NCBI GenBank assembly: GCA_002792275.1
Contig: PFOA01000041.1
Location: 1-34,773 of the forward strand
Source of the DNA: Candidatus Saccharibacteria bacterium CG_4_10_14_0_2_um_filter_52_9
Lineage (GTDB): Bacteria > Patescibacteriota > Saccharimonadia > Saccharimonadales > UBA4665
Direction: 5' to 3'
Length of the DNA: 34,773 nt
In this document: in pieces, positions 1 through 32,386 of the stretch
Layout: each line of letters opens with the position of its first letter
How positions within the stretch are numbered: position 1 is the first letter of the stretch
Notes under the pieces: generated by a model
What the model was told of the DNA's origin: nothing
What the model saw: only the letters and a program-made list of their open reading frames with translations
Databases searched by the model: none
Made by a program: the position numbers and the translations under genes

Positions 1-271
1 GAAAGCGGAAGGTATAGCCGGTAACCTGGCCGATGCCCGACAACAGCAGAATTACCAGAGCGGCGGCGGCTACCATGCCAGAGCCTCTTACCAGGTACCA
101 GGGCCACGATGATTTGGCGCGCTCGGTAAATTTTTGGGCCACCGTCGGGCCGGGGATGGTCTGAACGACGATATTGCTCGAACCGCCCTCTGCCAGTGCT
201 GGCTGGGCAAAAAACAAGTCGCCGGCCAGCACCGCCAACAGCATGGCCGTTAATAACACTAGCCTACGCAT
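1..271 (-). CDS. Membrane protein, N-terminal part only (runs off the window edge). Signal-peptide-like N-terminus followed by a ferric-reductase/MsrQ-like first TM helix.
   Basis: Not in the ORF track. Minus-strand ATG at 269-271 gives MRRLVLLTAMLLAVLAGDLFFAQPALAEGG...KSSWPWYLVRGSGMVAAAALVILLLSGI. The ATG overlaps the apbE stop (ATGCGTAG). Family resemblance rests on the motif only. Confidence 0.45.
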   Translation of the reverse strand, partial: MRRLVLLTAMLLAVLAGDLFFAQPALAEGGSSNIVVQTIPGPTVAQKFTERAKSSWPWYLVRGSGMVAAAALVILLLSGIGQVTGYTFRF

Positions 272-1268
272 GGGCTTTGGCCTCCAGCTGATGGCTGGCC
301 TGAATTGCCGGGCCGAATCGTGTTTCGAACCGCTGTCCGTCGGCGTCAACACACTGCAGTAGCGCCGCCTTAACACCGTGCTGGCGCAAGTATGGTACTG
401 CTTTTTCAGACCCCAATAAAACGGCACAGGAGGCCAGTACATCGACCTGTAAGGCCACGGGGGCGTAAACAGTCGCCAGCTGTACATCGGTTTCGGACGG
501 CTTCAAGGTGCGAGGATCAATAATATGGTGCCATTTACTGCCCTTTTTAATGCCATGGCGCACGCCGGTGCCCGAAGTTGCGACTGCAAACTGGCGCCGA
601 GAACCCTTAACCGACCACGGGCTAAGCTTGGCGAGATTAGCGGCACTTTGGATATCAACTTTAAAGGGCTGGCCGGCCACGTCATGACCGGCGGCTACAA
701 TGTCGCCACCCAGTGAAATCCAAAAGCCCTGCACCCAGTCGGGCATCGCTCGAGCTAGCTGATCGGCCAGATAACCCTTGCCACAGCCGCCGAAGTCCAG
801 GGCACTGTTGGGCGGTATGGCGGCGGTTATCTGGTTAATCTTCAGGTCGCGCACCCTGGCCACCTGCCGATCGGAGTAGTCGTCGTGCCGGTCATTTTTG
901 TAGTGCTCTACGAATGATCTGGTGTAACCGGCTTTCTGCAGTGCCGGTAGTATGAACGGGCTGAACAGCCCCTCGGTTTGCTCGCCGAGCTGTTTTGCCG
1001 CCAACAGCATGTTCCTGAATTCCGGCGTCACCGCCATTTGCATGCCGGCCGAGCGATTGAACACCGACAGCTCGCTCATTGGCAGAAAGCGGCTGAAGCG
1101 ACGTTCAAAAACATAGATATCGCGCCATAAACTCTGGAATAGTTCGGTTACCTGCTGCTCTTCGGCTGTACTGACCACCGTGAGCGTGACGTCACTGCCC
1201 AGTGCCAGATTGGTTTCGGCCCGTTGCTTTAATTGCACGTCGTTACCCCGCTGGCGGTGGTGGTACAC
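264..1268 (-). CDS. apbE: FAD:protein FMN transferase (ApbE family), with no recognisable signal peptide
   Basis: 334-aa ORF with ApbE-like blocks (ALGSDVTLTVV near the N-terminus, DFGGCGKGYLADQ, HHIIDPRT). GTG start at 1268 overlaps the upstream gene by 40 nt; an alternative GTG at 1238 would cut the overlap to 10 nt. Confidence 0.8.
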   Translation of the reverse strand: MYHHRQRGNDVQLKQRAETNLALGSDVTLTVVSTAEEQQVTELFQSLWRDIYVFERRFSRFLPMSELSVFNRSAGMQMAVTPEFRNMLLAAKQLGEQTEGLFSPFILPALQKAGYTRSFVEHYKNDRHDDYSDRQVARVRDLKINQITAAIPPNSALDFGGCGKGYLADQLARAMPDWVQGFWISLGGDIVAAGHDVAGQPFKVDIQSAANLAKLSPWSVKGSRRQFAVATSGTGVRHGIKKGSKWHHIIDPRTLKPSETDVQLATVYAPVALQVDVLASCAVLLGSEKAVPYLRQHGVKAALLQCVDADGQRFETRFGPAIQASHQLEAKAHA

Positions 1269-2317
1269 CGGGGGGCGGCGACCGGTGTGGGCTTAGGTGC
1301 CGTACTTGTAGAGACAGTGGTAGTGGTGGGCTGACTGGCGGTAGCTACGGCGGCGGCCGAGGACGGAGCAGTATTGGCTGTTTCCGGCAGACTGTTCACC
1401 AGGGAGTCCAGATCGGCCTGGCGTGAATTCGTAAGACTGCTGGCAGTTACGTTGTTGGTAGCGCTGGCGCTGGTTGCCGGCAGGGTTTTTAGCAGATCGG
1501 CTACCATGACTACAAAACTGCCGATGGCCAGACTGGCGGCTCCCAAAAAGTAGATGTTAAACGGCCAACTGCGGATTTTGCCGGTCTGGTGGTTTGGCCC
1601 CTGGCTGAAGGCTTCGGTCATAACACGGTGGCCGTCAACGCCTTGAGCATGCAACAGTTTGTTCATTGCTCGCATGAACGGTTGTGGGCCACAAATAAAA
1701 TAGGTTGGCCGGCGAACCAGGCCGGCGCTGGCCTTAGCGATAATGTCGGCGTTGATCCGGCCACTAGCCACTCTTTCGCCAGCCAGCTTATCAACCGGCT
1801 CTTGGCTGATGACAAAAACGGCCCTGAAATTAGAATTCTGACGCTCCAGCTCACGTAATTCGTCGCCAAACGGCACGTCATCCTGACTGGCACAGCTAAA
1901 AAGCAGGGTCACCCGATTGGCCAGACGGGTTGCGGCGGCGTATCGAATCATACTCATGAAAGGTGTTATGCCGATGCCACCGGCCAGCAACACCACCTCC
2001 GGCTCGCTGGCCGGATCAAACACAAAACCACCAAACGGCCCCCTTACCTTTACGACATCGCCGGGCTGGGCGCCGGCCAGTGCCCGGGTAAAACGGCCTT
2101 TGGTGCGCATGCTGAACTGTAAAATATCCGGATTGGTCGGCGAGCTGACTATTGAGAAGCAGCGTGCTGCTGTTGGCCGGCGGCGGCGGAAAAAACTGAT
2201 GGCCGCGTATTGCCCGGGCTGAAAATCAAAAGGCCGACTGGGTTCGGTATTTTTGAGCGTTACCAGCAACGTGGTTGGCGTTAATTGCTGATTATTTGTA
2301 ACGGAATAGGTATGCAT
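1229..2317 (-). CDS. FNR-like FAD/NAD(P)-binding oxidoreductase with a C-terminal TM helix and a Ser/Thr/Ala/Pro-rich tail
   Basis: RCFSIVSSP (RxYS-type flavin motif), GGIGITPF (NAD-binding), one hydrophobic helix (FNIYFLGAASLAIGSFVVMVADLL), then a low-complexity tail ending PRCTTTASGVTTCN. ATG lies 1 nt after the VIT1 stop. Confidence 0.75.
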   Translation of the reverse strand: MHTYSVTNNQQLTPTTLLVTLKNTEPSRPFDFQPGQYAAISFFRRRRPTAARCFSIVSSPTNPDILQFSMRTKGRFTRALAGAQPGDVVKVRGPFGGFVFDPASEPEVVLLAGGIGITPFMSMIRYAAATRLANRVTLLFSCASQDDVPFGDELRELERQNSNFRAVFVISQEPVDKLAGERVASGRINADIIAKASAGLVRRPTYFICGPQPFMRAMNKLLHAQGVDGHRVMTEAFSQGPNHQTGKIRSWPFNIYFLGAASLAIGSFVVMVADLLKTLPATSASATNNVTASSLTNSRQADLDSLVNSLPETANTAPSSAAAVATASQPTTTTVSTSTAPKPTPVAAPRCTTTASGVTTCN

Positions 2318-8868: not shown

Positions 8869-9181
8869 ATGAATCGGCAAGAAGTTGAATCGGCAATTGA
8901 CACGCTCGGCGATAAACACCACCTATGTTTTGACTGTTAAAAAGCAGGGTGACGTAAGAAGTCTAGCAACCCAAATTACAGACGATCTATCCGGACAGAA
9001 TGTGCTTTTAGTGGAAGATATTTTGGAAACCGGTAAAAGTTTACAAACAGCACTCAAATATCTGAAATCCAAGGGAGCGAACGTTCGCACTGCCGCTATA
9101 TATGTTCTGCCCGATTCAGAAGTAAAACCCGATTTTTATCTGAGCGAAGAAACTGGTGCGATTATATTTCCGTGGGACTAG
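8869..9181 (+). pseudogene. Type I phosphoribosyltransferase, frameshifted/truncated (PRPP motif kept, N-terminal PPi-loop region missing)
   Basis: ATG 8869 opens a 23-codon frame (MNRQEVESAIDTLGDKHHLCFDC*). A second frame from TTG 8885 carries NVLLVEDILETGKSL (PRPP-binding) and the ...IIFPWD C-terminus. Total length is about 100 aa versus about 150 expected. Locally AT-richer than the flanks. Confidence 0.55.
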
Positions 9182-9546
9182 CTCAGCCACCCCCTTATTG
9201 TAGTCTCATCATTTAACATAGCTTTTAATAGACCCTCTGTGTTTTTAAAAGTCTGGTTCGGACGGTGATAATGACTGAGTATCACTTTTAAGCGTTCACC
9301 ATAGTAATCCTCATCGGGGATATCGAGCAGGTGGGCCTCCACCCGGCGGACGTTATCGCCCATAGTGGTGGGCGTACCCACAAAAATCAGCGCCGGGTGG
9401 TGCTTATACCCTGCCAGATCGGCAAAACCAAAATAGACACCGTCTTGCAGATCGGTCTCGATGGCTAGGTTGGCGGTAGGGTAACCGAGTTTACGGCCAT
9501 TACCTTGGAATTGAACAACGATGCCGCTGAGTGTGGCTGGTTTCAT
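9178..9546 (-). CDS. Stand-alone riboflavin kinase (RibF C-terminal-domain type)
   Basis: GIVVQFQGNGRKLGYPTANL, VEAHLLD...YGERLKV and RPNQTFKNTEGL blocks. No FAD synthetase domain. Confidence 0.75.
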   Translation of the reverse strand: MKPATLSGIVVQFQGNGRKLGYPTANLAIETDLQDGVYFGFADLAGYKHHPALIFVGTPTTMGDNVRRVEAHLLDIPDEDYYGERLKVILSHYHRPNQTFKNTEGLLKAMLNDETTIRGWLS

Positions 9547-9630
9547 AGTTATATTATACGTGGCTTCCCGTTACTGCATACTCGTTAGGCTTAGAGTATG
9601 CACTGGGTATGTAGTGATAAGATAGTTGAT

Positions 9631-10248
9631 ATGCCCCACCGCAAACTTAAACCGCAACCGACCCTAAGCCATGAGCTCAAACAGTGGCTAAAGGCCGAAA
9701 ACGACAAGACCTTGGCGGCTTTTAACGATGTCTTTGCCGAAAAGTCGTTTGCCATCACTTTTCTGCTGTTGCTGGCCCTGCCGGCACTGCCGATTCCCAC
9801 CGGTGGCGTAACCCATGTTACCGAACTCATAGCCATGTTACTCAGTCTGGAGCTTATAATCGGCCGCAAAACCATCTGGCTACCCAAGCGCTGGCTGAAA
9901 ACCGATATGGGCAAAGTGATGCAGGGCAAGGCGGCTCAGAAGCTGATTGGTGTTATAACCTGGTTTGAGCGCCTGTCGCGCCGGCGCTGGAGTGGCTTTT
10001 TGGTGTTACGACCAGTGGTTTCTGTAACCGCTCTGCTGATTCTGATCTTCACCGTGGCGGCCTTTGTGGCGCCGCCGTTCTCCGGGCTGGACACCCTGCC
10101 GGCACTCGGCGTGGTGGTAATGTCACTGGGGATTATCCTGGAGGACGCACTGGTTGTTTTTGCCGGGATATTGATCGGCTCTGGCGGTATAGCAGTAGAG
10201 ATTGCTGCCGGCACAGCGCTATACAGCGGTCTGACGCACTTTTTCTAG
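9631..10248 (+). CDS. ExoD-family (exopolysaccharide synthesis) membrane protein
   Basis: FAITFLLLLALPALPIPTGGVTHV...GRKTIWLPKRW matches the ExoD family signature region. ATG 9631 is preferred over the track start at 9598. Confidence 0.7.
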   Translation: MPHRKLKPQPTLSHELKQWLKAENDKTLAAFNDVFAEKSFAITFLLLLALPALPIPTGGVTHVTELIAMLLSLELIIGRKTIWLPKRWLKTDMGKVMQGKAAQKLIGVITWFERLSRRRWSGFLVLRPVVSVTALLILIFTVAAFVAPPFSGLDTLPALGVVVMSLGIILEDALVVFAGILIGSGGIAVEIAAGTALYSGLTHFF

Positions 10249-10877
10249 TTCGAAAGCTGGCTGTCGGGGAGTGACATGAACAGCCGGGTATCGGCTACGG
10301 TTTCGCCGTTAGCGGTTGGACGCTCGCCGGCCTCTTGGTCAACGTCTACAAAACCGATTTTGTGATAAACGTGAACTGCTCCGCCATTGGACTGCCAGGT
10401 TTCCAGCCACATATTTCTGGCGCCGTACAACGATGCCGAACCCAGCACGATTAGGCGGGCGAAAGGCGTTGCCAAGCCCTGCCCCTGGCCGATTTCACCG
10501 ATGCGAAGCGCGAAAGTCGTTTCGCCGCCGGGTACATGCAAGCTGGTACCTGAACCCACCCAGCCGTAACCGGCCAATTGCAGACCGCCGGCATTGCGCT
10601 TAAATAGCAGGAAAGTAGCCCGCTCTTTGGACAGCCAGTCTTTTGTGGCCTCCTGGCTGGCAAAGCGCTTGCCGGAATCATTGGGGCAATACTCACGAAT
10701 CGCCAGTTCTAGCGCCATATTTATAATCGCCTCAGCGTACTCCGGTGTCAGGCCAAAGTGGATCTCGTAGCCCTGCTCGGCTAAACGCTCAATATCCTGG
10801 CGGGCAGTCTCGCTCAACTGATCGGGCGACAGCGGACGCGCGATATCCGAAAAGCTACTCGGGAAAGCGTGGCTCAT
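10245..10877 (-). CDS. GNAT-family N-acetyltransferase
   Basis: GNAT motif A-like IGEIGQGQGLATPF. The ATG overlaps the glmM stop (ATGA). Confidence 0.7.
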   Translation of the reverse strand: MSHAFPSSFSDIARPLSPDQLSETARQDIERLAEQGYEIHFGLTPEYAEAIINMALELAIREYCPNDSGKRFASQEATKDWLSKERATFLLFKRNAGGLQLAGYGWVGSGTSLHVPGGETTFALRIGEIGQGQGLATPFARLIVLGSASLYGARNMWLETWQSNGGAVHVYHKIGFVDVDQEAGERPTANGETVADTRLFMSLPDSQLSN

Positions 10878-12169
10878 AACAGCTCCTCGAGTTTGGCGGC
10901 GATCTGTTCGGCCAGAGTCTGGGCATCCGGGGCTTCAACCATAACACGAGCCAGTGGTTCGGTACCCGATGGCCGAATCAGTAAGCGGCCATTGTCTCCC
11001 AATTGATTAACTTGTTCAGTAATGAAGGCCTGCACTTCTGGCGACGCCAGACGCGACTTGTCGGTCAGCTTAATATTTACCAGTGCCTGGGGCAGGATCG
11101 GTATGTCATCAAACCACTGAGCCAGGCTGTGTCCCGAGGCGGCCACAGCCTTGACGGTTTGAACGGCGGCCAGCATGCCATCACCGGTGGCTAACAGATC
11201 GGGCAGGATTATGTGTCCGGCCTGCTCGCCGCCCAGATGATAGCCGGTTTTACCGAGTTCTTCCAGTACGTAGCGGTCGCCGACATCGGAACGTTCCACT
11301 TCTACACCATGGTCGCGCAGGGCATTCTCTACCCCCAGATTGGTCATAACGGTTACCACCACACCCTTGAGATTGCCGCAGACTGCCAGGATGTACATGA
11401 TGTGATCGCCAGTAAGTAGGCGGCCTTGGCCATCAATCAACATTACCCGATCGGCGTCACCGTCCAGAGCGATGCCCATATCGAGTTTATCGGCCACTAC
11501 CCTGGCCGCTAAGGCCTTGGTATTGGTGGCTCCACAGCTCTCGTTGATGTTTTGGCCGTCCGGAGCATCGGATAATGACGTTACTGTGGCACCCAGGCGC
11601 GTAAACACCCGCTCGGCCAGGCCGGAACCGGCACCGTTGGCGCTATCAATCGCCAGATTAACACCATCAAGTTTGAGCCCGTCGGCACTTGCCACCAAGA
11701 AGTTTTCATAATCACCGACTAATTGGTCGTTATCGTCTGCCAGCCCGCCGTCGCGCTCGGGGCAGCCATCGACAATTAACTTGTTAAGGGTGGCCTCGGT
11801 GGCATCATTTAATTTACCTCCTTTGGCAGTAAACACCTTAACGCCGTTGTACTGGCGCGGATTGTGGCTGGCGGTCACCATAACGCCGACTACGAATTCA
11901 TCGCCCTGACGAGTCAGATAAGCTAAACCGGGGGTTGGCAGAACGCCGGCGAATGTCACATGAACGCCGGCCTTGTTGAGCCCTTCGGTAAGAGCTTTTA
12001 TCAGTCCGGCCGAGGATTCCCGCGGGTCACAACCCATAACTACGCGCTGACCGGGCTCGGCAAAATGTGTGCCCACGGCCATGCCGATGCGCACCGCCCC
12101 GTCATGATCCAGCGGATAGTCTCCGGCCAGGCCGCGAACACCATCGGTACCGAATAAATCTCTACTCAT
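10874..12169 (-). CDS. glmM: Phosphoglucosamine mutase (alpha-D-phosphohexomutase family)
   Basis: GVMVTASHNPRQYNGVK (active-site Ser), ALDGDADRV (Mg site), GEQAGH. The ATG overlaps the aclA stop (ATGA). Confidence 0.85.
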   Translation of the reverse strand: MSRDLFGTDGVRGLAGDYPLDHDGAVRIGMAVGTHFAEPGQRVVMGCDPRESSAGLIKALTEGLNKAGVHVTFAGVLPTPGLAYLTRQGDEFVVGVMVTASHNPRQYNGVKVFTAKGGKLNDATEATLNKLIVDGCPERDGGLADDNDQLVGDYENFLVASADGLKLDGVNLAIDSANGAGSGLAERVFTRLGATVTSLSDAPDGQNINESCGATNTKALAARVVADKLDMGIALDGDADRVMLIDGQGRLLTGDHIMYILAVCGNLKGVVVTVMTNLGVENALRDHGVEVERSDVGDRYVLEELGKTGYHLGGEQAGHIILPDLLATGDGMLAAVQTVKAVAASGHSLAQWFDDIPILPQALVNIKLTDKSRLASPEVQAFITEQVNQLGDNGRLLIRPSGTEPLARVMVEAPDAQTLAEQIAAKLEELL

Positions 12170-13950
12170 GAAGGTATATAGGTGATGTCGTCTTCGCCCA
12201 GGCGCAACAACCCCTCATCGTGGCGGCGCTGATCCAGGTAATGAGCCATTAAACCGGCTGACCGGCTCAATATAAAGATAGCGTTAAAAAATTCTATGTC
12301 GACCAGTTCACGAAGTTTATCCGGGCTGTAGTCCAGCTCTGACTCTAGTATATCGAGCAGCATGGCGGCGATAGTTCCATCGACATTGAGGATCAGGTTA
12401 GCCTTTTTAGAGGTTGTAACTGCTTCGACTCCCTGGGCAAATTTTAGATAGCGGTCACCGTTACTATTGTTAGAAAACTGCTCTGTTAAGGCCTTGACCC
12501 GGGGGTCGGGCGTGTCAATCCGGTATTTTTTATGTCCGATGCCGGGAATGATGCCGCCATTGGCGGTGAACCCGGCTACGAAGGCTTTTGGCTCGGTGTC
12601 ACTGCCTGCGCCTTCCAGCCAGGCGTCGGCGGCGGCGTTAACAGCGCCGCCAAACCGCGGACCGATGGTCAGTAGGCCGGCCGTTAAACTGGAGGCCAGA
12701 TCCTTACCGGCCCGGGCGGCTACTATGGTATTCACGGCTCCCGAAACGTAAGGACCGTGATCCGCTAGCAAGCGTAGGATATAATCACTGAATTCGATGA
12801 CTTTTGGTGAGGTAATCTGCTGTCCGAGCAGTAAGGAGATGTCCAGTCCGGCCAGACTATTCTCATTTACAACGCTCAACAACTCTTTGCCTAACAGGTG
12901 CACGCCGCCGTTAATATCACCTGAAATACGACTGACAATCATAGCTTTACTCCTTTGTTTAATTGGCCGATGTGGTTTGGCCTGATGGCTACCGGTTTCG
13001 GCCTGGGCTGATAAATCGGTAGCCAGTTCACCGAATACATCCATTACCTTGGCGCCGGCTGTCCGCAAAGCCTCCTTTTTGGCTTGGGCACTCTCGCTTT
13101 GGTTAGCGGCCATGGCTTTAGCATGTCCAAATTGCGGCGGCTGATCGAATAACCCGGCGACGGTTCCGGCTATATAGGCGATGACCGGCTTAGTGACCTT
13201 GCCGCTCTTCATGAGGTCGGCTAGGATATACTCGTCGTCGCCGCCCAGTTCGCCAAAGTAGACAATCTGCCTGGTTCGCTGATCGCTTTCGGCCAGCAGA
13301 AAGGCCTGGGCAGGTGTGGTGATCGGATTGCGATCGCCGCCGAGCGCCAGCGCAAAAGAAACCCCCAAGCCGGCCCCGGTAACAGTGTGTATCAGCTCGT
13401 TCACCATGCCGCCCGAGGTAGAGATTACCGCCGTGTCGCCGCCAGAGAAGATATTGGCGGCCACCAGTTGCGGATATTGCGTGCCGCCGATGGCGCCAAG
13501 TTTCATGACCCCAGGAACCAGCAACCCAACCGACGCCGGCCCGGCCACAAGCACATCGTGTTGCTCGGCCAAGGCCGCAACCTGCAGGGCGTGAACCTCG
13601 GGAACCTGCTCGGCAAAGATATTGGCGACCTGTAAATTAGGCAGTAGTTCAAACGTTTCTGTCATGCTGGCCAGCACACGCCGCGCCGACTGTACGTTTA
13701 ATAGACCGGTGGCTTGTTGGCGCAGTTGTTCCGGTACTTTGGCAAGTTTGGCGTAGACCGGCACCATAATTTCATCATGCCCCCAAAAAAACCGCTCCTG
13801 TTTACGGCCAGCGCTGACAATGGCCACTAAATTGGGTGCGCTATGACCCAGACAATAATTGTAATCGAGCATCGACTGGATGATCCCCGGATGCGACCCT
13901 AAACTTATAATGACCGGTTCCAGGTTTTGCAGATCCAGCTCTTTACTCAT
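12166..13950 (-). CDS. aclA: ATP-citrate lyase alpha (large) subunit: CoA-binding, CoA-ligase and citrate-synthase-like domains
   Basis: FWGHDEIMVPVY, QFGHAKA (phospho-His loop), LLADHGPYVSGAVNTIVAARAGKDL, GIGHKKYR, TTSKKANLILNVDG, HYLDQRR. Collinear with the C-terminal two thirds of ACLY. ATG 13950 has GGAGG upstream and overlaps the aclB stop. Confidence 0.9.
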   Translation of the reverse strand: MSKELDLQNLEPVIISLGSHPGIIQSMLDYNYCLGHSAPNLVAIVSAGRKQERFFWGHDEIMVPVYAKLAKVPEQLRQQATGLLNVQSARRVLASMTETFELLPNLQVANIFAEQVPEVHALQVAALAEQHDVLVAGPASVGLLVPGVMKLGAIGGTQYPQLVAANIFSGGDTAVISTSGGMVNELIHTVTGAGLGVSFALALGGDRNPITTPAQAFLLAESDQRTRQIVYFGELGGDDEYILADLMKSGKVTKPVIAYIAGTVAGLFDQPPQFGHAKAMAANQSESAQAKKEALRTAGAKVMDVFGELATDLSAQAETGSHQAKPHRPIKQRSKAMIVSRISGDINGGVHLLGKELLSVVNENSLAGLDISLLLGQQITSPKVIEFSDYILRLLADHGPYVSGAVNTIVAARAGKDLASSLTAGLLTIGPRFGGAVNAAADAWLEGAGSDTEPKAFVAGFTANGGIIPGIGHKKYRIDTPDPRVKALTEQFSNNSNGDRYLKFAQGVEAVTTSKKANLILNVDGTIAAMLLDILESELDYSPDKLRELVDIEFFNAIFILSRSAGLMAHYLDQRRHDEGLLRLGEDDITYIPS

Positions 13951-15133
13951 GATCCACCTCCTGCAGAGCCTCTTTAACGGCATCCGTTAACGGTACGTCC
14001 GGATCATGCACAGCACCTAGCAGACCGTGTTTAGCTAAGGCGACTTCCATGTTGGCCAAGCCGGCTTCCTGGTTTGGGCCGCCGCGGCGGACAAAAATTT
14101 TGACACCGGCGGCCTGTAATTTATCGGCGACTTCGTCGATGGCCTTGATGACACCGGCGAAGGTTTTATTAACATCTGTAAAATTAGCCACCGCGCCACC
14201 GATAAACAGCACCTTGCGAGAGGCCTGGGACTTCAGAAGTAACTGCAGTAACTGCTTGGTGTATATATAGGTTTCCTCGGCGTTGGGATTGCCGCTGTAC
14301 TCACCATAGTTGGCAAGTTGTTTGCCGTAGCCCTGGTTGTAAACTTCGTCGGCCACCACCACGCTGGCACCGCCGCCGGACAACAGTAAGAATATGCTGC
14401 CATTCGGTTCCAGCACGCTAAGTTTAAGCGAGGCCGGAGAATTGTCATCCAGCTCTTTAACAACCGCCTCTTCGGGAGTTTGATCGTGTCCGCTGTGGCT
14501 ACGGAAATCATCTATCTGCCAACTATCCACAAAAAAGGCCGCCGCATCATCGACCTCAACGGCCGAGTCCAGGATTTGTAAGCCATTCTCACTGGCCAAA
14601 TAAGGGTTGATCTCCATAAAGGCAAAGTAATTATCCAGGAACGCCTGGGTCAGCTGTTGCAATTGCCGGCTGTTAATAGCCGTTTTCTGGGCTAACTGTT
14701 CCCAATCAGTCGCATCATTGACGCGAACTTGCTGAAGGCTGCTGGCTTGCTTTTCGATATCAACCCCGCCGCTGGCCGAAAACTGGAGCATTACTCCCAG
14801 CCGATCAGACATAAAACTTATATAACGCTCGTCGCCCGGAGCATGTTCGGCCATCGGTTCTACAATCAGCCACTGATAGCCTTTAGACTTCAGCTGTTCG
14901 GCGGCCTCGACCAGATCGGCGGCTTTGACATTGAGCGCCACCAGCCCCTGATTAAAGCGACCTTTAACACCTTGATCCACTTTTAGGGCGAAAGTGCCGC
15001 CTGCCTCAATGGCTGACTGTAGTTGGGCAGGTAAGGGCGCCTCGATATCGACAGACCAGCCCTTGTAAGGCAGTTCGAGGGCTTTAGAAATAATGGTTTT
15101 GGCCCGGTATTCTGACAACTTCTGGCGCGGCAT
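13943..15133 (-). CDS. aclB: ATP-citrate lyase beta (small) subunit: ATP-grasp and citrate-binding domains
   Basis: SLKLSVLEPNGSIFLLLSGGGASVVVAD, LANYGEYSGNP, IGGAVANFTDV, FVRRGGPNQEAGL. Collinear with the ACLY N-terminus. ATG 15133 (MPRQKLSEY...) is preferred over 15145 because an extended -10 box lies 7 nt upstream. Confidence 0.9.
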   Translation of the reverse strand: MPRQKLSEYRAKTIISKALELPYKGWSVDIEAPLPAQLQSAIEAGGTFALKVDQGVKGRFNQGLVALNVKAADLVEAAEQLKSKGYQWLIVEPMAEHAPGDERYISFMSDRLGVMLQFSASGGVDIEKQASSLQQVRVNDATDWEQLAQKTAINSRQLQQLTQAFLDNYFAFMEINPYLASENGLQILDSAVEVDDAAAFFVDSWQIDDFRSHSGHDQTPEEAVVKELDDNSPASLKLSVLEPNGSIFLLLSGGGASVVVADEVYNQGYGKQLANYGEYSGNPNAEETYIYTKQLLQLLLKSQASRKVLFIGGAVANFTDVNKTFAGVIKAIDEVADKLQAAGVKIFVRRGGPNQEAGLANMEVALAKHGLLGAVHDPDVPLTDAVKEALQEVDHE

Positions 15134-15140
15134 ATCTACC

Positions 15141-15149
15141 ATCATACCA
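15141..15149 (-). promoter_or_regulatory. Extended -10 (TGgTATGAT), 7 nt upstream of the aclB ATG
   Basis: Minus strand reads TGgTATGAT-ggtagat-ATG with no SD. Confidence 0.4.
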
Positions 15150-15187
15150 AAGCACGTTTAAAAGCGCTTCAGTTTACAGGGCTAGGC

Positions 15188-15385
15188 TTAGTCCTGTAAG
15201 GTCTCTGGCGGATTATCAGGATCAAACTTATCTAATGGGCGGTCAAGAGCATGTCTACGTTCAACCTGTGGTATAGACCCAGGAGCCGCTTGGATAGCAC
15301 CTTCTAAGGCTTTACTGCCAACAGACTGAGGGTCTGTGACGATCGGCTCTCCGTTAGCGGCACTATTTGGATCTTGTTCAGGCAT
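15188..15385 (-). CDS. Small acidic hypothetical protein (65 aa)
   Basis: ATG 15385 is preceded by AGGAG at 6-nt spacing. TGtTACAAT lies further upstream. No family recognised. Confidence 0.4.
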   Translation of the reverse strand: MPEQDPNSAANGEPIVTDPQSVGSKALEGAIQAAPGSIPQVERRHALDRPLDKFDPDNPPETLQD

Positions 15386-15517
15386 AACTTGCTCCTGTTT
15401 AGGTAGTAAATTGTAACATGCATACATCGACTGCTTCGGTGTCTCGGGCAACAGGTTGTTGCCTTGCTTGCCTCAGGGGTATATACTTCCAGACACCTAA
15501 GGAGCGTGATAATTCCT

Positions 15518-16216
15518 ATGCCGCAAGTTGTCCAATCGGAGAAACTTAAGGCTCTTTTCCAGTCCGGTCGGCTACTGCAATACCAGAAGCACGAGGTGAT
15601 TCTCCGAGCCGGCGATGAGCCGCAAGGCGTTTACCTGATTGAATCCGGGCTGGTCAAGATTTATTCGCTGACCAAACAGGGCGACGAGCACGTGACACAC
15701 TTTTTCGGGCCGGGCGACTTTTTTCCGATGATCTGGATCTTTCGCGGCCATATGCGTGAGGTTTATTATGGAGCGCTGTCGCCGGTTACAATTCGGGTGG
15801 TGACAAAAAAGGCCTTTATGGATCTGGTTAACGATGACCGCGACATCACTTTTGAGCTTCTGGAGGAGATGGTGAAACGCTACCTGCGCTATGCCGGGCG
15901 GATCGATAATCTGCTCTATTCCGACGCCCGGGAGCGCTGTGCCTACCGACTACTGTCCCTGGCCAACCGCTTTGGTAGCAGAACCGACGCCGGCCTGGTT
16001 ATTAATGCCAATATCACCCACGAGGACATGGCTCACTCAATAAACATGACCCGCGAGACGTTCGGGCGAGCCTTTAGCCGTTTTCAGAAGAAGGATGTCA
16101 TCGCTTACGATGATCAACACCGCCTGGTAATCAAAGATCTTGGTGCGCTGATCCATATTATCGGCCGCGAGGAAACCGAAACTCAGTGGCCCGACCTGCT
16201 AAAATATAGTGGTTAA
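15518..16216 (+). CDS. Crp/Fnr-family transcriptional regulator
   Basis: cNMP-binding-like beta-roll (GDEPQGVYLIESGLVKIY...GPGDFF) plus a C-terminal HTH (THEDMAHSINMTRETFGRAFSRF). AAGGAG lies upstream of ATG 15518. No N-terminal Cys cluster. Confidence 0.8.
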   Translation: MPQVVQSEKLKALFQSGRLLQYQKHEVILRAGDEPQGVYLIESGLVKIYSLTKQGDEHVTHFFGPGDFFPMIWIFRGHMREVYYGALSPVTIRVVTKKAFMDLVNDDRDITFELLEEMVKRYLRYAGRIDNLLYSDARERCAYRLLSLANRFGSRTDAGLVINANITHEDMAHSINMTRETFGRAFSRFQKKDVIAYDDQHRLVIKDLGALIHIIGREETETQWPDLLKYSG

Positions 16217-16228
16217 CCAGGAGGGCAG

Positions 16229-16828
16229 ATGTTCACACTACCGGATTTAGATTATAGCTACGATGTTTTTGGCAAATACATCAGTAAAGACATCATGGAG
16301 TTGCACCACAGCAAGCACCATCAAACCTATGTCGATAAACTGAATGGGGCTATCGAACAGGCTCCCGAGTTGGCCGGCGAGAGCCTGGAAGAACTTATCA
16401 GCAATCTGGACAACGTGCCCGAGGCGGTGCGCGGCGTAGTCCGCAACCACGGCGGCGGCCATTACAACCATAGTCTGTTCTGGAAGTTCATGTCGCCCGA
16501 CGGCGGCACAGAGCCCGGAGGCACCTTAGGCGACGCCCTCAAGGCCAAATACGGCGATTTTCAGGGCTTTATGGATGCCTTTGGCGATAAGGCGCTGGGC
16601 GTCTTTGGTAGCGGCTGGGTCTGGCTGCAACCCGATCTGTCGATTGTTACCACGCCCAATCAGGATTCACCGCTCAACAGCGGCGGCTCTGCGCCCCTGC
16701 TCGGCCTCGACGTCTGGGAACACGCCTACTACCTAGATTACACCTACAAACGCGCCGACTACATCAAGGCCTGGTGGCACATCGTCAACTGGCACGAAGC
16801 CCAGTCCCGCTACAAAACCGCCAGCTGA
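16229..16828 (+). CDS. sodA: Fe/Mn superoxide dismutase
   Basis: LPDLDYSYD...MELHHSKHHQTYV and DVWEHAYYLDY motifs. AGGAGG RBS. Starts 12 nt after the crp-like gene. Confidence 0.92.
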   Translation: MFTLPDLDYSYDVFGKYISKDIMELHHSKHHQTYVDKLNGAIEQAPELAGESLEELISNLDNVPEAVRGVVRNHGGGHYNHSLFWKFMSPDGGTEPGGTLGDALKAKYGDFQGFMDAFGDKALGVFGSGWVWLQPDLSIVTTPNQDSPLNSGGSAPLLGLDVWEHAYYLDYTYKRADYIKAWWHIVNWHEAQSRYKTAS

Positions 16829-27255: not shown

Positions 27256-27783
27256 TCATCTGTTAGGCGGGAATCCTACAAAGTTAAAATGCCACCATTC
27301 ATACGGCCAGACAACAAAGCCGGCTTCCTTCATAAACTCTTTGAGGAGTTTGCGATTCATCTGCTGTTGCCAGCTCAAGCCTTCGGCGCCATCGTGGGCT
27401 TCGGAGCCGAAACGATCAAAACCGGTGGCCATGTCTAAGAGATTGCCATTCTTATCGGCTAGTGTTACATCAACCGCCAAGCCCTTGGGGTGCATGGATT
27501 TATCCGGATCCAGTACATAGTTATCTGGCCCTTTATGGAAGGCTACCAATTTATTATGTGCCTCAACTGGTCGGTGGGCATCCCACACAACCAGAAAAAG
27601 TCCCGGTTTGATCATTAGCTGAGCCGCATAGGCCAAGGCATAGGCCGCCGGCTCTAAGAGCTTAGCCACAGTGTCTTCGCCGGTGTATAGAACCTCGCCC
27701 GTAAAGTTATCGGACGTGGCATATTTGAGGTCGACAATAGTGCCTTCGGGCAGTAAAGGCGTGAGCTCTCGAAGTTGTTTCAT
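27256..27783 (-). CDS. D-alanyl-D-alanine dipeptidase (VanX/DdpX, peptidase M15D)
   Basis: SMHPKGLAVDVTL (SxHxxGxAxD zinc motif) and YEWWHFNF (catalytic Glu and His ligand). Confidence 0.8.
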   Translation of the reverse strand: MKQLRELTPLLPEGTIVDLKYATSDNFTGEVLYTGEDTVAKLLEPAAYALAYAAQLMIKPGLFLVVWDAHRPVEAHNKLVAFHKGPDNYVLDPDKSMHPKGLAVDVTLADKNGNLLDMATGFDRFGSEAHDGAEGLSWQQQMNRKLLKEFMKEAGFVVWPYEWWHFNFVGFPPNR

Positions 27784-27786
27784 GGT

Positions 27787-28962
27787 TCAGAACTGTTGAA
27801 GATAGTTGGTGCTGAAGGTGGTCGTTAAGGCCTGGCGCTGGGTGTGGCGTTCTTTGGCGTAGCCTACTAGCTTTTGGACTAACTCGACGTTGCTGACGCC
27901 GGCGCGGTTCCAGTTGTGGGCGTAGAGGTCGCCGGGCAAAGGGTTAATCTCGTTAAAGTAGATGCGCTTGGTTTTTTCATCGATCAGCATGTCTACCCGG
28001 GCAACGCCGCTACAGCCAAAGGCTTTGTAGATCGCCACACCGATAGCCTCGGCCCTGACGTAGACTTCCTCTGGTACTTCGGCTGGGATCTTGCTGTAGC
28101 CCTGGGCGCCTTTGGAACCCTTAGACCCGCCCTTGCCTTTGCCCTTTTTGCCGCCCTGCAGATACTTGGTGTCAAAATCAAAGAAATCCTCGGGCTTGGT
28201 CATTGGCTGTTCCAGCATGGCCGGTTTTGGCCGGTCGTTACCCATAATCGGCAAGGTGACTTCAATCAAGTTAGGAATGGCCTCCTCGACTATTACGCGG
28301 TCGTCATAGTGGGCGGCGACTTCCAGGCCGTGGCGCAGTTCGGTGTCGTTCCTGACCTGGCTGATACCGATGCTCGAGCCCAGGTGAGCCGGCTTAACAA
28401 ATAATGGGTAGCCTAGGGTTTTCACGATGTTTTTCACAGCTTCGCCGGGCTGGCGCTCCAGCTCGGCTTTGGTGAAGGTCATAAACTTGGAAACCGGAAT
28501 GTCATTGGCGGTAGCGACTTCTTTGGCCAGGACTTTGTCCATGGCAATGGCGCTGGCGCTCAGTCCACAACCCACATAAGGAATGCCGGCCATATCCAGC
28601 AGACCCATCAGGGCGCCATCTTCGCCGTAAGTACCGTGCATGGCCGGAAAAGCGATGTCAATCCGGCGCGTTTGCTTGCGGCCGGCAATGCCGCTGGCCT
28701 TAACCAGGGTCATGCCACCGTCGAACTGAACGCTAGTGGGCTGGGTGCGATGCAGGTAATCCTGGATACCGCCCGAGGTAAACAGTTTGATGTCCTTGAG
28801 TTTTTCGTCCCAGTACCAGGCACCGTCTTTGGCTATATAGACTGCCTCTACCCGGTATTTTTTAGTTAATTCCAGGGGCTTAATAATGCTGGCCAGCGCC
28901 GTTACGATCGATACGTCATGCTCGGCCGATCGTCCGCCGAAAATTACTGCGATTGTTTCCAT
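27787..28962 (-). CDS. ddl: D-alanine--D-alanine ligase with a Gly/Lys-rich insertion in the omega-loop
   Basis: IAVIFGGRSAEHDVS N-terminus, ATP-grasp blocks (YPLFVKPAHLGSSIGIS, FFDFDTKY, EINPLPG). 391 aa. Confidence 0.92.
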   Translation of the reverse strand: METIAVIFGGRSAEHDVSIVTALASIIKPLELTKKYRVEAVYIAKDGAWYWDEKLKDIKLFTSGGIQDYLHRTQPTSVQFDGGMTLVKASGIAGRKQTRRIDIAFPAMHGTYGEDGALMGLLDMAGIPYVGCGLSASAIAMDKVLAKEVATANDIPVSKFMTFTKAELERQPGEAVKNIVKTLGYPLFVKPAHLGSSIGISQVRNDTELRHGLEVAAHYDDRVIVEEAIPNLIEVTLPIMGNDRPKPAMLEQPMTKPEDFFDFDTKYLQGGKKGKGKGGSKGSKGAQGYSKIPAEVPEEVYVRAEAIGVAIYKAFGCSGVARVDMLIDEKTKRIYFNEINPLPGDLYAHNWNRAGVSNVELVQKLVGYAKERHTQRQALTTTFSTNYLQQF

Positions 28963-29480: not shown

Positions 29481-30916
29481 GCGTAGTTGTCGGTCCAGTC
29501 GTTTTGCATGACCACCAGATCGCCGCTAGCCACGAAATGTTGCAGATTGGTGTAGAACTCCAGGGGATTGGTTTCGATCTGTAATTCGCCCTTGAACCTG
29601 CCTGCTTTCAGGCCTCTTTGGATAAAGTCGGTAACGGAATTTTGCATCAACACCACCAGATCGGGTTTGGCTGAGGCGATCAGCTTGCCGGCCTTGAGGT
29701 GGACGGCCTCGGTTTCTTCGCCTTGGTCTACCAGGCCGGGGGTAACGTAGATTTTGCGCTTGGCCTCCACGGCTTTGAGTAGCTCGGTGCCGGCACGCAG
29801 GCCCTCCAGGTTGCCGTTGTAGGTATCATCCACAATCCAGGCACCGCCCAGCTGGTAGGGCTGCATACGATGCTCAAAAGGCTCGGTTTTGGCAATGCCG
29901 GCCTTAACCTGGTCGTGGGTCAGCCCAAGTTCAATAGCCAGAGCGGCCGCCAGAGCCAGAAAACCAACCTGATGCTTGCCCACCAGACCGCTATGCAGTT
30001 TAAGCGAGTCTTTGCCCTTTTTCATAACAAAGCCGGTGCCATCGAGGCCGGTTTTGATGCGGGAAATCTTCCAGCCCAAGGCCGTTTTGCCGCTAAAGCG
30101 CTGGTAAGACTTTTTAATAAAGGGCTGGCTGTCCGGCGACTCGTCATTCACGTAAACCTGTTTGCCCTTGAGCTTGCCGGCAACCGAAAAAATATCCTGG
30201 CCGGCGGCCTGCAGGGTTTTGTAGCGATCCAGGTGAGCCGGCACCACACCGGTGATAACGGCGTGGGTGGGATGGGTCAGCCGGGTAAAGCGAGCCACGT
30301 CGCCGGGAGCGCCTTCGCCGTATTCAATAATCAACACATCTTCTTTGCCGGTCAGATTCTTGGCAAAGTTGGCATGGCTGATGCTGACATTTTTATTGGC
30401 CGGCGTGGCGGCAACGTCTAGCCCCTCGCCCAGCACGGTGTTCAGGATTTCTTTCATGGTGGTTTTGCCATAACTGCCGGCCACGGCGATTTTAACAGCG
30501 CCGTGCGCGGCAAAAACCCGCTCCGCGGCGGCAATTTGCTGTTGTTCGGCCGGCGCGCTGATAAACCAGCGGCCCAAAACCAGTGGTATAACCGCCAGAT
30601 GCGCCCAGATAATCGGGTAGCTCAGCATAAGTGCCGCTCCAAACAGCACACCGCCGGTCAAATCGCTGTACAAGCCCAGGTAAATCAGCCAGACTCCGGC
30701 CGCAATCTGCAGTAAGATGCCCAGGCGCAAAGCCAGCAGTAATAAACGGGCGGCCTTGGTTCTGTCTAGATCGCGGCGCTGGTTAACGGCCGTGAAGTTT
30801 TTGGTGCGCCAGACCCACTTTAGGTAAGGCTTTACCTGGTACTCGGTACTCTGCAACATATACACCAGCACTGTGGGGTAGCTCAGCAGGTAGATGCTGG
30901 CCAGCTCGTGGATCAT
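29477..30916 (-). CDS. Mur-ligase-family protein (MurF-like central and C-terminal domains) with an N-terminal multi-TM domain in place of the UDP-binding domain
   Basis: About 125 N-terminal residues with 3-4 hydrophobic helices. Then P-loop AVAGSYGKTTMKE and DDTYNGNLEG (the DxYNANP-type motif of MurF). The ATG overlaps the hydrolase stop (ATGA). Confidence 0.75.
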   Translation of the reverse strand: MIHELASIYLLSYPTVLVYMLQSTEYQVKPYLKWVWRTKNFTAVNQRRDLDRTKAARLLLLALRLGILLQIAAGVWLIYLGLYSDLTGGVLFGAALMLSYPIIWAHLAVIPLVLGRWFISAPAEQQQIAAAERVFAAHGAVKIAVAGSYGKTTMKEILNTVLGEGLDVAATPANKNVSISHANFAKNLTGKEDVLIIEYGEGAPGDVARFTRLTHPTHAVITGVVPAHLDRYKTLQAAGQDIFSVAGKLKGKQVYVNDESPDSQPFIKKSYQRFSGKTALGWKISRIKTGLDGTGFVMKKGKDSLKLHSGLVGKHQVGFLALAAALAIELGLTHDQVKAGIAKTEPFEHRMQPYQLGGAWIVDDTYNGNLEGLRAGTELLKAVEAKRKIYVTPGLVDQGEETEAVHLKAGKLIASAKPDLVVLMQNSVTDFIQRGLKAGRFKGELQIETNPLEFYTNLQHFVASGDLVVMQNDWTDNYA

Positions 30917-31665
30917 GCCAGAAACTCCTTTATCAAAGCAAATACTTTTTCGGGTTGGTCCAAATGAACGAAGTGTTCGGAGTCGGCAATAATTTCCAGG
31001 CGCGAATTTTTAATAAGTTTGTGGTAAATCTGGCCGTCGCTGACCGGAACGGCTTTATCGTCGGCGGCGTAGATCAACAACGTCGGAACAGTAATGGTGG
31101 CGGCAGAGCGCTGTACATCCTGGCGCACAGTCTTTTTAAAGGTTTCCTGAAGCTGAGGAGCAACCAACATGTCCGAACCGGCTACGCCGTATAGGCTTTT
31201 GCGCAGACCCTGCCGGTAGCGCTCGGGCATCCACAGTGTGGCCACACTGCCGGTCTTGGCCAACACTTTCAGCACAGCTCGTTTAACCTTACTGCCGGTG
31301 CGCACACCCGAAGCCGCCAACAACACCAGTTTTTGCGGCTCAAGAGCCTGCAAGGCAATCGCCCGTACCGCCAGCGCTCCGCCGTTGCTGTGACCAACCA
31401 CTGCATAGGGCTGTCCAAGTTCCAATTTAGCCAAAAACGCGGCCACAAATTGCCCGTAATTATCAAGATTCCAGACCTCTTTAGGCGCCTGGGTAGCGCC
31501 AAAGCCAGGCAGATCCAGCGCGACAACCTGATGTTGCTTAGCCAGCTGGCCGGCCAGGTCTTTCAGCCCCTTAGCGCTGTCGCCCCAGCCGTGCAGTAAT
31601 AAGACCAATTTGCCCTTACCCTGAAGTTCGTAACTGGTCAGGAGATCATCAACAACAATTTGCAT
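30913..31665 (-). CDS. Alpha/beta-fold hydrolase
   Basis: LLLHGWGDS (oxyanion region), GHSNGG nucleophile elbow, C-terminal ...SEHFVHLDQPEKV. ATG 31665 is preferred because the track ORF extension runs through tRNA-Leu. Confidence 0.8.
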   Translation of the reverse strand: MQIVVDDLLTSYELQGKGKLVLLLHGWGDSAKGLKDLAGQLAKQHQVVALDLPGFGATQAPKEVWNLDNYGQFVAAFLAKLELGQPYAVVGHSNGGALAVRAIALQALEPQKLVLLAASGVRTGSKVKRAVLKVLAKTGSVATLWMPERYRQGLRKSLYGVAGSDMLVAPQLQETFKKTVRQDVQRSAATITVPTLLIYAADDKAVPVSDGQIYHKLIKNSRLEIIADSEHFVHLDQPEKVFALIKEFLA

Positions 31666-31697
31666 GTGCTTATTATAACTGAGTAAGGGACAAATTT

Positions 31698-31784
31698 TGG
31701 TGCGCGGGGTGGGAATCGAACCCACACGCCCTTTCGGGCACGACATTTTAAGTGTCGCTTGGCTACCAGTTACAACACCCGCGC
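31698..31784 (-). tRNA. tRNA-Leu (anticodon UAA), class II with a long variable arm, CCA encoded
   Basis: Folded by hand. Acceptor GCGCGGG/CCCGCGC, anticodon stem CGACA/TGTCG with loop CTTAAAA, variable arm TGCCCGAAAGGGCGT, T-arm GTGGG-TTCGATT-CCCAC, 3' ACCA. Confidence 0.9.
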
Positions 31785-32261
31785 TAAATGAACCTTCTTA
31801 TTTTTACCACGATGAGTGGGCTGAAGGCTATGGCAATTTGGGCAAAGTATGCGTAAATTTTCCAATCGGTTATCCTGTTTGTTGCCATTTATATGGTCAA
31901 GCTCGACCGGTATACGACCATCGACAGACAACTTTGCCCAGCCGCACAGTTCGCAAATGGGTGACTTCAGCCCTTTTGCAAACAATTTATGCTTGAGCTT
32001 ATAGCTTTGCACGCTACTGCCTGCAACCAACAGTTTCTCCAAAGGTACCGTTGATTTGAGCTGATACTTTGTTCCCGCATTCCAACCCTTACCCGTAAAA
32101 TGCTCGGTGCTCAATGCCAGTTCGTTGATACGACGTTTGACTTGGTCATAGTTGCCGCCCGCCGGTATCAGCCTTAGTTTCATCAGCACGCTACGATAAC
32201 TCTTTAGCATTGCAACGGCTTCGATCAGTTCACTATCCGTCCAGGAGCGCTTTGCACACAT
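31770..32261 (-). CDS. HNH endonuclease (homing-endonuclease-like)
   Basis: CELCGW...ELDHINGNKQDNRLENLRILCPNCHS HNH motif. The N-terminal WTDSELIEAV...GGNYDQVKRRINEL module is typical of free-standing HNH genes. AT-richer than its neighbours. Confidence 0.8.
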   Translation of the reverse strand: MCAKRSWTDSELIEAVAMLKSYRSVLMKLRLIPAGGNYDQVKRRINELALSTEHFTGKGWNAGTKYQLKSTVPLEKLLVAGSSVQSYKLKHKLFAKGLKSPICELCGWAKLSVDGRIPVELDHINGNKQDNRLENLRILCPNCHSLQPTHRGKNKKVHLARVL

Positions 32262-32312
32262 GATACAAGTGTACCATATACAATGTGTACCGGTTCCTGG
32301 TAATACAAATTA

Positions 32313-32386
32313 TGGAGGCACCTACGGGAATTGCACCCGTGTACGCGGTTTTGCAGACCGCTGCGTAACTACTCCGCCAAGGCGCC
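32313..32386 (-). tRNA. tRNA-Cys (anticodon GCA), CCA encoded, with an atypical T-loop
   Basis: Acceptor GGCGCCT/AGGTGCC, anticodon stem GCGGT/ACCGC with loop CTGCAAA, T-arm ACGGG-TGCAATT-CCCGT, 3' TCCA. Confidence 0.8.

Follow-up and report, generated by a model that had tools for sequence, protein, structure and literature searches.

The cytosolic ATP-citrate lyase (ACL) of eukaryotes supplies acetyl-CoA from exported citrate for acetylation and biosynthesis, and in metagenomes ACL is routinely scored as a marker of autotrophy by the reductive tricarboxylic acid (TCA) cycle. GlmU, considered essential and all but universal among bacteria and a target of drug research, has a C-terminal domain that acetylates glucosamine 1-phosphate (GlcN-1-P) with acetyl-CoA to N-acetylglucosamine 1-phosphate (GlcNAc-1-P). 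Here we describe a 34,773 nt contig (PFOA01000041.1, assembly GCA_002792275.1; referred to as the window) of Candidatus Saccharibacteria bacterium CG_4_10_14_0_2_um_filter_52_9, a member of the Saccharimonadales within the Candidate Phyla Radiation (CPR), in which genes for a predicted ACL, for the phosphoglucosamine mutase GlmM and for a GNAT-fold acetyltransferase form one apparent operon. From its genomic associations we think it rather probable that this operon serves both the supply of acetyl-CoA and its use in amino-sugar synthesis.

The predicted ACL has the aclB–aclA architecture of the two-subunit enzymes of Chlorobium limicola (AclB/AclA) and Methanothrix (Methanosaeta) concilii (ACLY-A/B), and shares with these and with human ACLY the domain order ATP-grasp, citrate-binding, CoA-binding/ligase with a phosphohistidine loop, and citryl-CoA lyase module. 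The small subunit gene aclB (13943..15145, reverse strand, 400 aa) encodes the ATP-grasp and citrate-binding part; its product matches Pfam PF16114 Citrate_bind at 199.9 bits (cutoff 26.8, E-value 3.1e-59) and Citrate_synth_N at 8e-22, the ACL ATP-grasp domain is found, and the score against PF24948 (78.2 bits) is under the cutoff of 83. It aligns with ACLY-A of M. concilii (6hxi_A among the PDB entries compared) at 6e-62, with human ACLY at 2e-53 and with Chlorobium AclB at 1e-39, and keeps the motifs GGGASV, ANYGEYSG, IGGA(V/I)ANFTDV and VRRGGPN of the solved enzymes. The large subunit gene aclA (12166..13950, reverse strand) encodes 594 aa when read from the ATG overlapping the stop codon of aclB, the mechanical open reading frame (ORF) reaching 13983. 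Its product carries the CoA-binding/ligase part (PF00549 Ligase_CoA, 53.4 bits) and a C-terminal citryl-CoA lyase module (PF00285 Citrate_synt, 81.8 bits); residues 15–592 align with human ACLY 440/502–1094 (E-value 1.4e-102), and ACLY-B of M. concilii is matched at 8.5e-99. The phosphohistidine loop QFGHAKA corresponds to QFGHAGA in human ACLY, where we take the histidine to be His760, and the equivalent H276 is invariant among 19 relatives, as are the lyase-module motifs ADHGP, GIGH, NVDG and HYLDQRR, which align with human ACLY 836–1034 (the last as HYLDQ(R/K)R). The Pfam domains and the full-length alignments to solved structures thus confirm, at the level of sequence, that aclB and aclA encode a complete two-subunit ACL, as an initial sequence-only reading had claimed from a motif-for-motif match to the ACLY and Chlorobium types, and the enzyme looks catalytically competent.

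The closest of 3093 AclA homologues are from Saccharimonadales, and the closest source-named homologues of both AclA and the GNAT (60–80 % identity) are from Candidatus Saccharimonadales or Patescibacteria. Both subunits are nearer to the archaeal and human enzymes (AclA 335–347 bits, AclB 185–213 bits) than to those of Chlorobium limicola (238 and 140 bits respectively), and this pattern, of bit scores rather than of a tree, hints at an origin other than the classical bacterial enzymes of the reductive TCA cycle. Unlike the Chlorobium ACL, the window ACL is found in a CPR host with a genome of about 1 Mb, in a class reported to have no TCA cycle, and shares its operon with glmM and the GNAT gene.

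The four genes are joined by overlaps of 8, 4 and 4 nt. The aclB stop and aclA start overlap in ATGAGTAA (13943..13950), which is preceded by the Shine–Dalgarno-like GGAGGTG, and the overlaps of the aclA stop with the glmM start (12166..12169) and of the glmM stop with the GNAT start (10874..10877) are both ATGA on the reverse strand, the latter preceded by GAGGAG. The four-gene unit first recognized from these overlaps therefore stands, as does its start at 10245, but its end at 15149 does not, since the first ATG of aclB is at 15145, 4 nt short. The overlaps suggest that aclB, aclA, glmM and the GNAT gene are translationally coupled, and they are presumably co-transcribed. The third gene (10874..12169, reverse strand, 431 aa) very probably encodes GlmM, judging by its score against TIGR01455 (435.9 bits, slightly under the cutoff of 447.55, with the runner-up model at 292 bits), by the presence of all four PGM/PMM domains and by the phosphoserine motif TASHNP in its translation. 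The fourth (10245..10877, reverse strand, 210 aa) encodes a GNAT-fold acetyltransferase of an uncharacterized family.

These last two genes form a conserved pair. Scanning metagenomes with the GNAT alignment gave 48 loci, which were pooled with the genome loci. Among GNATs of at least 46 % identity with a readable upstream region, glmM is directly upstream on the same strand in all 41 pairs, and the junction is a 4 nt overlap in 30, a 1 nt overlap in four and a gap of 0–31 nt in seven. The two proteins also occur as natural full-length fusions. P0345 is 621 aa long, with the GNAT at 455–604; its residues 1–429 cover the whole window GlmM (431 residues) at 50 % identity, and P0360 (617 aa) matches the latter at 44 %. 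Two contigs, each from a different sample, carry the fusion ORFs intact, and genes for L-threonine dehydrogenase and glycine C-acetyltransferase (Tdh–Kbl) are directly 3′ of both fusion genes. Six further fusion clusters of 600–655 aa (P0390–P0392, P0394, P0403 and P0405), whose nearest unfused GlmM relatives are from Saccharimonadales, bring the total to at least eight. In P0266 and P0389 a more distant mutase of the PGM/PMM family is fused to the GNAT, and the GNAT is C-terminal in several family members longer than 600 aa. Because full-length fusions to GlmM are repeated and divergent, and because the overlap is conserved, we regard this as good evidence that the predicted GlmM and GNAT proteins work together. 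One protein consisting of a GlmM C-terminus and a GNAT (P0132) was discounted as fusion evidence, given the fusion to riboflavin kinase described below (P0174), and the full-length fusions are the stronger evidence.

The most telling result concerns what lies upstream of the pair, which suggests a connection to acetyl-CoA. Relatives keep a frame of sodA ... glmM–GNAT–(exoD)–ribK–ahcY in which the genes between sodA and glmM vary, and within 5 kb upstream of glmM–GNAT this slot holds ACL in 18 loci, phosphoketolase plus acetate–CoA ligase (Xfp–Acs) in five, two or three phosphotransacetylase (Pta) paralogues in four and Tdh–Kbl in two. An upstream acetyl-CoA module is missing from two loci, but in one of them (L067) the pair is itself followed directly by aclBA; L118 is the sole locus without any such module, and in L091 Xfp–Acs is 5 kb downstream. 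Scores against NCBIfam models exceed the cutoffs for Acs (816 bits, cutoff 729), Kbl (552, cutoff 460) and phosphoketolase (924, cutoff 777), whereas the Tdh and Pta models are the best NCBIfam matches of their proteins yet are under cutoff. The same modules also flank aclBA itself, Tdh–Kbl in L001, L048, L053, L063 and L072, and Xfp–Acs or Acs in L034, L052 and L056. The four enzyme systems are mutually unrelated and their sole common property is the production of acetyl-CoA or acetyl phosphate, and the GNAT is the only acetyl-CoA consumer encoded beside them. The best reading of this pattern is that ACL is one of several interchangeable sources of acetyl-CoA that evolution has placed beside glmM–GNAT.

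Some of the slot proteins are unusual in themselves. The phosphoketolase at L081:4153–6936 (also in L089, L108, L034 and L091) is 927 aa long and is extended at its C terminus by about 130 aa that match the CoA-binding domain of the alpha subunits of ADP-forming acetate–CoA ligases (CoA_binding_2; NCBIfam match at 793–894). A gene for an AMP-forming acetate–CoA ligase always follows, often overlapping, and the extended enzyme could couple acetyl phosphate formation to CoA chemistry. The two or three tandem Pta-like paralogues upstream of glmM–GNAT at L083:5533–8568 (also in L084, L088 and L100) are on alternating strands and all score under the Pta equivalog cutoffs; one, of 424 aa, matches the Pta model in two stretches, which suggests an internal duplication. 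Between Tdh–Kbl and glmM–GNAT in the clade of 46 % identity there is a 472 aa protein (L116:6146–7564) with no Pfam or NCBIfam match.

When the genome collection was scanned with the AclA alignment, 143 species genomes proved to carry ACL; the 80 of these that were fetched belong to Saccharimonadales/Saccharimonadia, Levyibacteriota, Woesebacteria and Magasanikbacteria. All ORFs of 83 loci were clustered and recurrent neighbours annotated; about 140 related loci were compared overall. By ORF census aclB and aclA are adjacent at 77 of 82 AclA loci, the exceptions being contig ends or artefacts of ORF calling. The linkage of aclBA to glmM and the GNAT gene, predicted from the window, extends to its relatives: at AclA identities of 65 % or more, glmM (and the GNAT gene where the contig reaches) is within three genes of aclBA in 13/13 species genomes. 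The linkage takes four arrangements, namely aclBA–glmM–GNAT, aclBA–tdh–kbl–glmM (L001), glmM–GNAT on the opposite strand (upstream of aclBA in L007, downstream in L011) and, in the more distant L067, glmM–GNAT–aclBA; L050 has aclB–aclA–GNAT without glmM. The glmM linkage is absent from more distant clades, where other genes of the pathway are found beside aclBA. In the clade of 59–63 % identity glmS (745 bits against TIGR01135, cutoff 418) is directly downstream of aclA in seven loci and no more than about 6 kb away in another six, and a gene for an Acyl_transf_3 O-acyltransferase is often directly upstream of aclBA. In a clade of about 50 % identity (Levyibacteriota and relatives) murB (190 bits against TIGR00179, cutoff 144.5) is at position +1 or +2 of aclBA in 18 loci, and ddl (494 bits, cutoff 457) is directly upstream of aclB in four.

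Three further observations concern these loci. An NTP_transferase gene that is often near aclBA–glmS (clade B) was considered as a GlcNAc-1-P uridylyltransferase and rejected, its best match being mannose-1-phosphate guanylyltransferase. Many metagenome-assembled genomes (MAGs) labelled ‘uncultured Gammaproteobacteria’ (L031, L032, L036, L038–L040, L042, L043, L047, L050, L052, L054 and others) carry ACL of the Patescibacteria type in a gene order identical to that of Levyibacteriota MAGs (VanW, solute-binding protein, unknown, GreA, aclB, aclA, murB, class-I LysRS), and the label is probably wrong. VanW-like proteins recur near aclBA in the Levyibacteriota loci.

The GNAT itself is a genuine member of the fold, on the evidence of its predicted structure and its motifs. 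An AlphaFold model built from 63 homologues has a mean confidence (pLDDT) of 96.6 and the GNAT alpha/beta fold, and a Foldseek search of the PDB with this model returned 359 matches at E≤1e-3, of which the top 50 listed are all GNAT acetyltransferases. The neighbours are mixed (a lasso-peptide acetyltransferase, NatD, SpeG, PaiA, PA4794 and HP0935), with template-modelling (TM) scores of about 0.5–0.65 and 12–22 % identity. Matches of the family profile to PDB sequences are confined to the cofactor-binding half, the best being SpeG at 3e-6. Scores against described families are 21.1 bits for Pfam Acetyltransf_3 (cutoff 25.4, E-value 5.5e-4), 21.1 and 18.4 bits for the RimI models (cutoffs 173 and 86.4) and 16.7 bits for the spermidine acetyltransferase model (cutoff 218), and the best NCBIfam matches, with E-values of about 1e-4, are far under their cutoffs. 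Searching 1.84 billion representative proteins exhaustively with HMMER yielded 318 members of the family at E≤1e-10. The acetyl-CoA motif GQGQGLATPF (QGQGLA) is invariant in the family, as are R71, R86, R125, K173, R198 and four tryptophans, and about 95 conserved N-terminal residues (GYEVHxGLTPE...IREYCPNDSGxRF) set it apart. An attempt to read the substrate from homology was given up, NCBIfam, Pfam, the PDB profile search and Foldseek having yielded generic GNAT similarity alone. The sequence-only reading had allowed for a ‘GNA1-like’ role, and as a statement of homology this is not upheld: GNA1 is absent among the 60 listed PDB profile matches (E≤1) and among the top 50 Foldseek matches. 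GNA1, the eukaryotic glucosamine 6-phosphate N-acetyltransferase, would act in the same pathway, and shares with the window protein the superfamily fold and the cofactor but no specific similarity, the window family having its own N-terminal region. That the GNAT might instead cluster with RimI, SpeG, the aminoglycoside acetyltransferases or another characterized family is at odds with the sub-cutoff NCBIfam scores and the generic PDB and Foldseek matches.

In the scheme that we propose, ACL would cleave citrate with ATP and CoA into acetyl-CoA and oxaloacetate, the citrate presumably being obtained from a host or the environment and the reaction being assumed to run in this direction. GlmM would convert glucosamine 6-phosphate (GlcN-6-P) to GlcN-1-P, and the GNAT, synthesized in concert with GlmM, would use the acetyl-CoA to N-acetylate a glucosamine phosphate, so that we propose it to be a glucosamine-phosphate N-acetyltransferase. 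The simplest substrate would be GlcN-1-P, giving GlcNAc-1-P, with GlcN-6-P, before the mutase step, as the alternative; the product would go on to UDP-N-acetylglucosamine (UDP-GlcNAc), UDP-N-acetylmuramic acid and peptidoglycan. The organism does appear to make peptidoglycan, since genes for Ddl, a MurF-like ligase and a D-Ala-D-Ala dipeptidase are also present in the window. Few other uses of acetyl-CoA are to be expected, because Saccharimonadia are reported to lack both a full TCA cycle and phospholipid synthesis (PMC9530719), and this report also agrees with the initial view that the ACL is not part of an ordinary full TCA cycle. That acetyl-CoA from ACL is channelled into amino-sugar N-acetylation, as was suggested at the outset, is supported at the genomic level by the glmM–GNAT pairing, the fusions, the displacement of one module by another and the adjacency of glmS, murB and ddl. 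A role in energy-yielding citrate catabolism is unlikely because, on stoichiometric grounds, the ATP spent in cleavage would at best be regained through Pta–AckA.

The proposed role resembles that of the eukaryotic cytosolic enzyme in that citrate made elsewhere would yield acetyl-CoA where it is not otherwise made. It differs in that the window enzyme is bacterial and of two subunits, that the citrate would come from outside the cell, and that the main sink would be the N-acetylation of amino sugars rather than lipids or histones. The reaction proposed for the GNAT is that of the C-terminal domain of GlmU, and the GlmM–GNAT fusions, like GlmU, physically join consecutive steps of the pathway. 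However, the acetyltransferase of GlmU is a left-handed beta-helix (LbH) of hexapeptide repeats whereas the modelled GNAT has the unrelated alpha/beta fold, and because the folds differ a common function would be possible solely as a non-homologous replacement; moreover, the GNAT is coupled to the preceding enzyme, the mutase, whereas GlmU couples the acetyltransferase with the following one, the uridylyltransferase. We suggest tentatively, and with somewhat more doubt than assurance, that in environmental Saccharimonadales a GlmM-coupled or GlmM-fused GNAT replaces the LbH acetyltransferase domain of GlmU and is fed by an interchangeable acetyl-CoA module, here ACL, which would be a route undescribed in bacteria.

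The literature that we searched contains no description of a link between ACL and amino sugars, of the GlmM–GNAT pair and its fusions or of interchangeable acetyl-CoA modules, and nothing usable on glmU or glmS in Saccharibacteria or the CPR; what is already known there is the presence of aclAB in Saccharimonadia and nothing further. The supplementary tables of one survey give aclA/aclB in 3/11 MAGs of the best-represented group and hold no glmU data (PMC12577380). For the oral Saccharibacterium TM7x an inability to make UDP-GlcNAc has been reported (PMC10768705), and the pathway is thus variable in the group.

Several points weigh against a role in amino-sugar synthesis. The GNAT has no specific affinity, in sequence or structure, to GNA1 or to known sugar acetyltransferases, and distant members of its family (31–38 % identity, with 22–24 of 26 invariant residues kept) are not beside glmM. 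The neighbours of such unlinked members at L122, L127 and L129, which are mostly without a Pfam family and otherwise include a beta-lactamase-fold protein, a GDSL lipase and an NmrA-like protein, are patternless and uninformative. P0174 (329 aa) is a GNAT fused in frame to riboflavin kinase, which shows that fusion is possible without a common pathway. A citrate transporter was not identified within the window. A bifunctional GlmU, if it is also encoded in these genomes, would make a GNAT that acetylates GlcN-1-P redundant; no GlmU-like, GlmS-like or TCA-cycle genes are present in the 34.8 kb window, a tblastn search of the window with E. coli GlmU gave no match, and the same search of the window plus the loci (about 1.9 Mb, whole genomes not being searched) matched nothing but a generic hexapeptide acetyltransferase that is encoded in a polysaccharide cluster of L058. 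The region from sodA to ahcY could merely be a variable hotspot that gathers central-carbon genes. Finally, in favour of the role, a hexosamine or peptidoglycan-precursor gene is immediately beside aclBA in 34 of the 72 loci with both flanks readable (within two genes in 41/72, and in 22 of the 59 distinct flank arrangements), but loci within a clade are not phylogenetically independent and the number of independent juxtapositions is about 5–7, not 34. For a pathway that makes up about 2 % of a 1000-gene genome, 5–7 would still seem to be far above chance.

Explanations in which the GNAT is a protein or polyamine acetyltransferase that shares the operon with glmM for expression only are, taken together, doubtful. 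In one such account, which by itself we consider unlikely, ACL is a general source of acetyl-CoA, the GNAT is a housekeeping protein acetyltransferase like RimI, RimJ or RimL, or a regulator that acetylates GlmM, the operon ensures co-expression and the synteny reflects the sodA–ahcY hotspot. The best weak profile matches (RimI, the RimJ/L-type Acetyltransf_3 and SpeG), the names ‘RimI-like’ or ‘RimJ/RimL family’ given by JGI to many family members and the presence of the protein acetyltransferases NatD and HP0935 among the top Foldseek matches would suit this account, but the matches to characterized families are far below cutoff and cover only the generic acetyl-CoA-binding half. The conservation of the sodA, ribK and ahcY flanks around a variable middle is what a hotspot would produce, yet aclBA is beside glmS, murB and ddl in clades outside that hotspot, and the four unrelated systems of the slot have their acetyl-CoA or acetyl phosphate output alone in common. 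A GNAT–RibK fusion does exist, but co-expression alone does not readily account for at least eight clusters of full-length GlmM fusions together with a 4 nt overlap that persists at identities as low as 46 %.

It is more improbable still that the GNAT acetylates some other envelope-linked amine (a UDP-amino sugar, lipid-linked glucosamine, a polyamine or an antibiotic) while ACL and the other modules supply the acetyl-CoA. The closest structures by TM-score are indeed the polyamine acetyltransferases SpeG and PaiA (about 0.6–0.65), but SpeG shares less than 22 % identity with the GNAT and resembles it in the cofactor-binding region only. The occurrence of distant family members without glmM, and the position of the clade B aclBA genes in polysaccharide clusters near the Acyl_transf_3 O-acyltransferase and glycosyltransferases, would agree with such a substrate, whereas the fusion partner is specifically GlmM, which is not known to yield anything but glucosamine phosphates. 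That the ACL marks a reductive TCA cycle and autotrophy, or works backwards as a citrate synthase that yields ATP, is hardly credible, for although ACL is the classical marker of the Arnon–Buchanan cycle and a 2025 survey lists the Saccharimonadia aclAB under it (PMC12577380), the annotated conserved neighbours of aclBA at the 83 loci are cell-wall and acetyl-CoA genes, with no TCA-cycle enzyme among them, and the genomes of the class, of about 1 Mb, are those reported without the full cycle (PMC9530719).

The sole sizeable non-coding stretch 5′ of the operon (15146..15463, reverse strand) is presumed to contain its promoter, and separates aclB from a divergent gene for a Crp/Fnr-family regulator (15464–16216, forward strand); a promoter and terminator scan of 9500–16300 gave counts no different from those of shuffled sequence. 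A small ORF within this stretch (15188–15451; 87 aa from a TTG, about 66 aa from the first ATG) has no Pfam or family match and may be a leader peptide or spurious. The G+C content of the operon (0.54–0.57) is in line with that of the remaining window, so that composition gives no signal of recent transfer across it. On the other side, the 3′ end of a convergent gene for an ExoD-family membrane protein (9598–10248) overlaps the GNAT stop codon by 4 nt and keeps the GNAT gene apart from ribK (9178–9546). A flavin redox cluster a few genes from ribK (window 264–2317) is conserved at L081:15540–18276 and L083:15978–18687 and encodes an ApbE flavin transferase, an FMN_bind protein and an oxidoreductase; in the relatives the latter (about 504 aa) is an RnfD/NqrB-like membrane domain fused to a NAD-binding domain, and in the window it has the FAD/NAD-binding part only (362 aa).

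The rest of the window is mostly housekeeping, with genes for LeuRS, GuaA, RNase III, NusB, TrmD, S16, AhcY, SodA and two tRNAs, as well as a class-IV aminotransferase. At 27256–28962 the VanX-like D-Ala-D-Ala dipeptidase (Peptidase_M15) is encoded directly downstream of Ddl, which is unusually long (391 aa) and passes subfamily-level Ddl models only; with the VanW-like proteins of the Levyibacteriota loci, these may point to an unusual chemistry of the peptidoglycan stem peptide. At 31698–32386 an HNH endonuclease ORF (31770–32261) is between tRNA-Leu(TAA) and tRNA-Cys(GCA); the tRNA-Leu overlaps the 5′ end of an alpha/beta-hydrolase ORF (30913–31746), the true start of which is probably further downstream.

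At least 143 species genomes of Patescibacteria carry ACL, most likely for a job other than carbon fixation, and counts of autotrophs that treat the enzyme as a marker would be misled by them. Should the GNAT indeed N-acetylate glucosamine phosphates, part of GlmU would be replaced by a protein not homologous to it, and the natural GlmM–GNAT fusions are ready-made constructs for a simple enzymatic test of this. The proposed scheme, if correct, would show what ultra-small, host-dependent bacteria need acetyl-CoA for, and would make the cell-wall synthesis of these epibionts dependent on external citrate, threonine or pentose phosphates. It would thereby point to metabolites (citrate, threonine and sugar phosphates) that are required for the wall, which would be useful both for the cultivation of CPR bacteria and for understanding their dependence on hosts.

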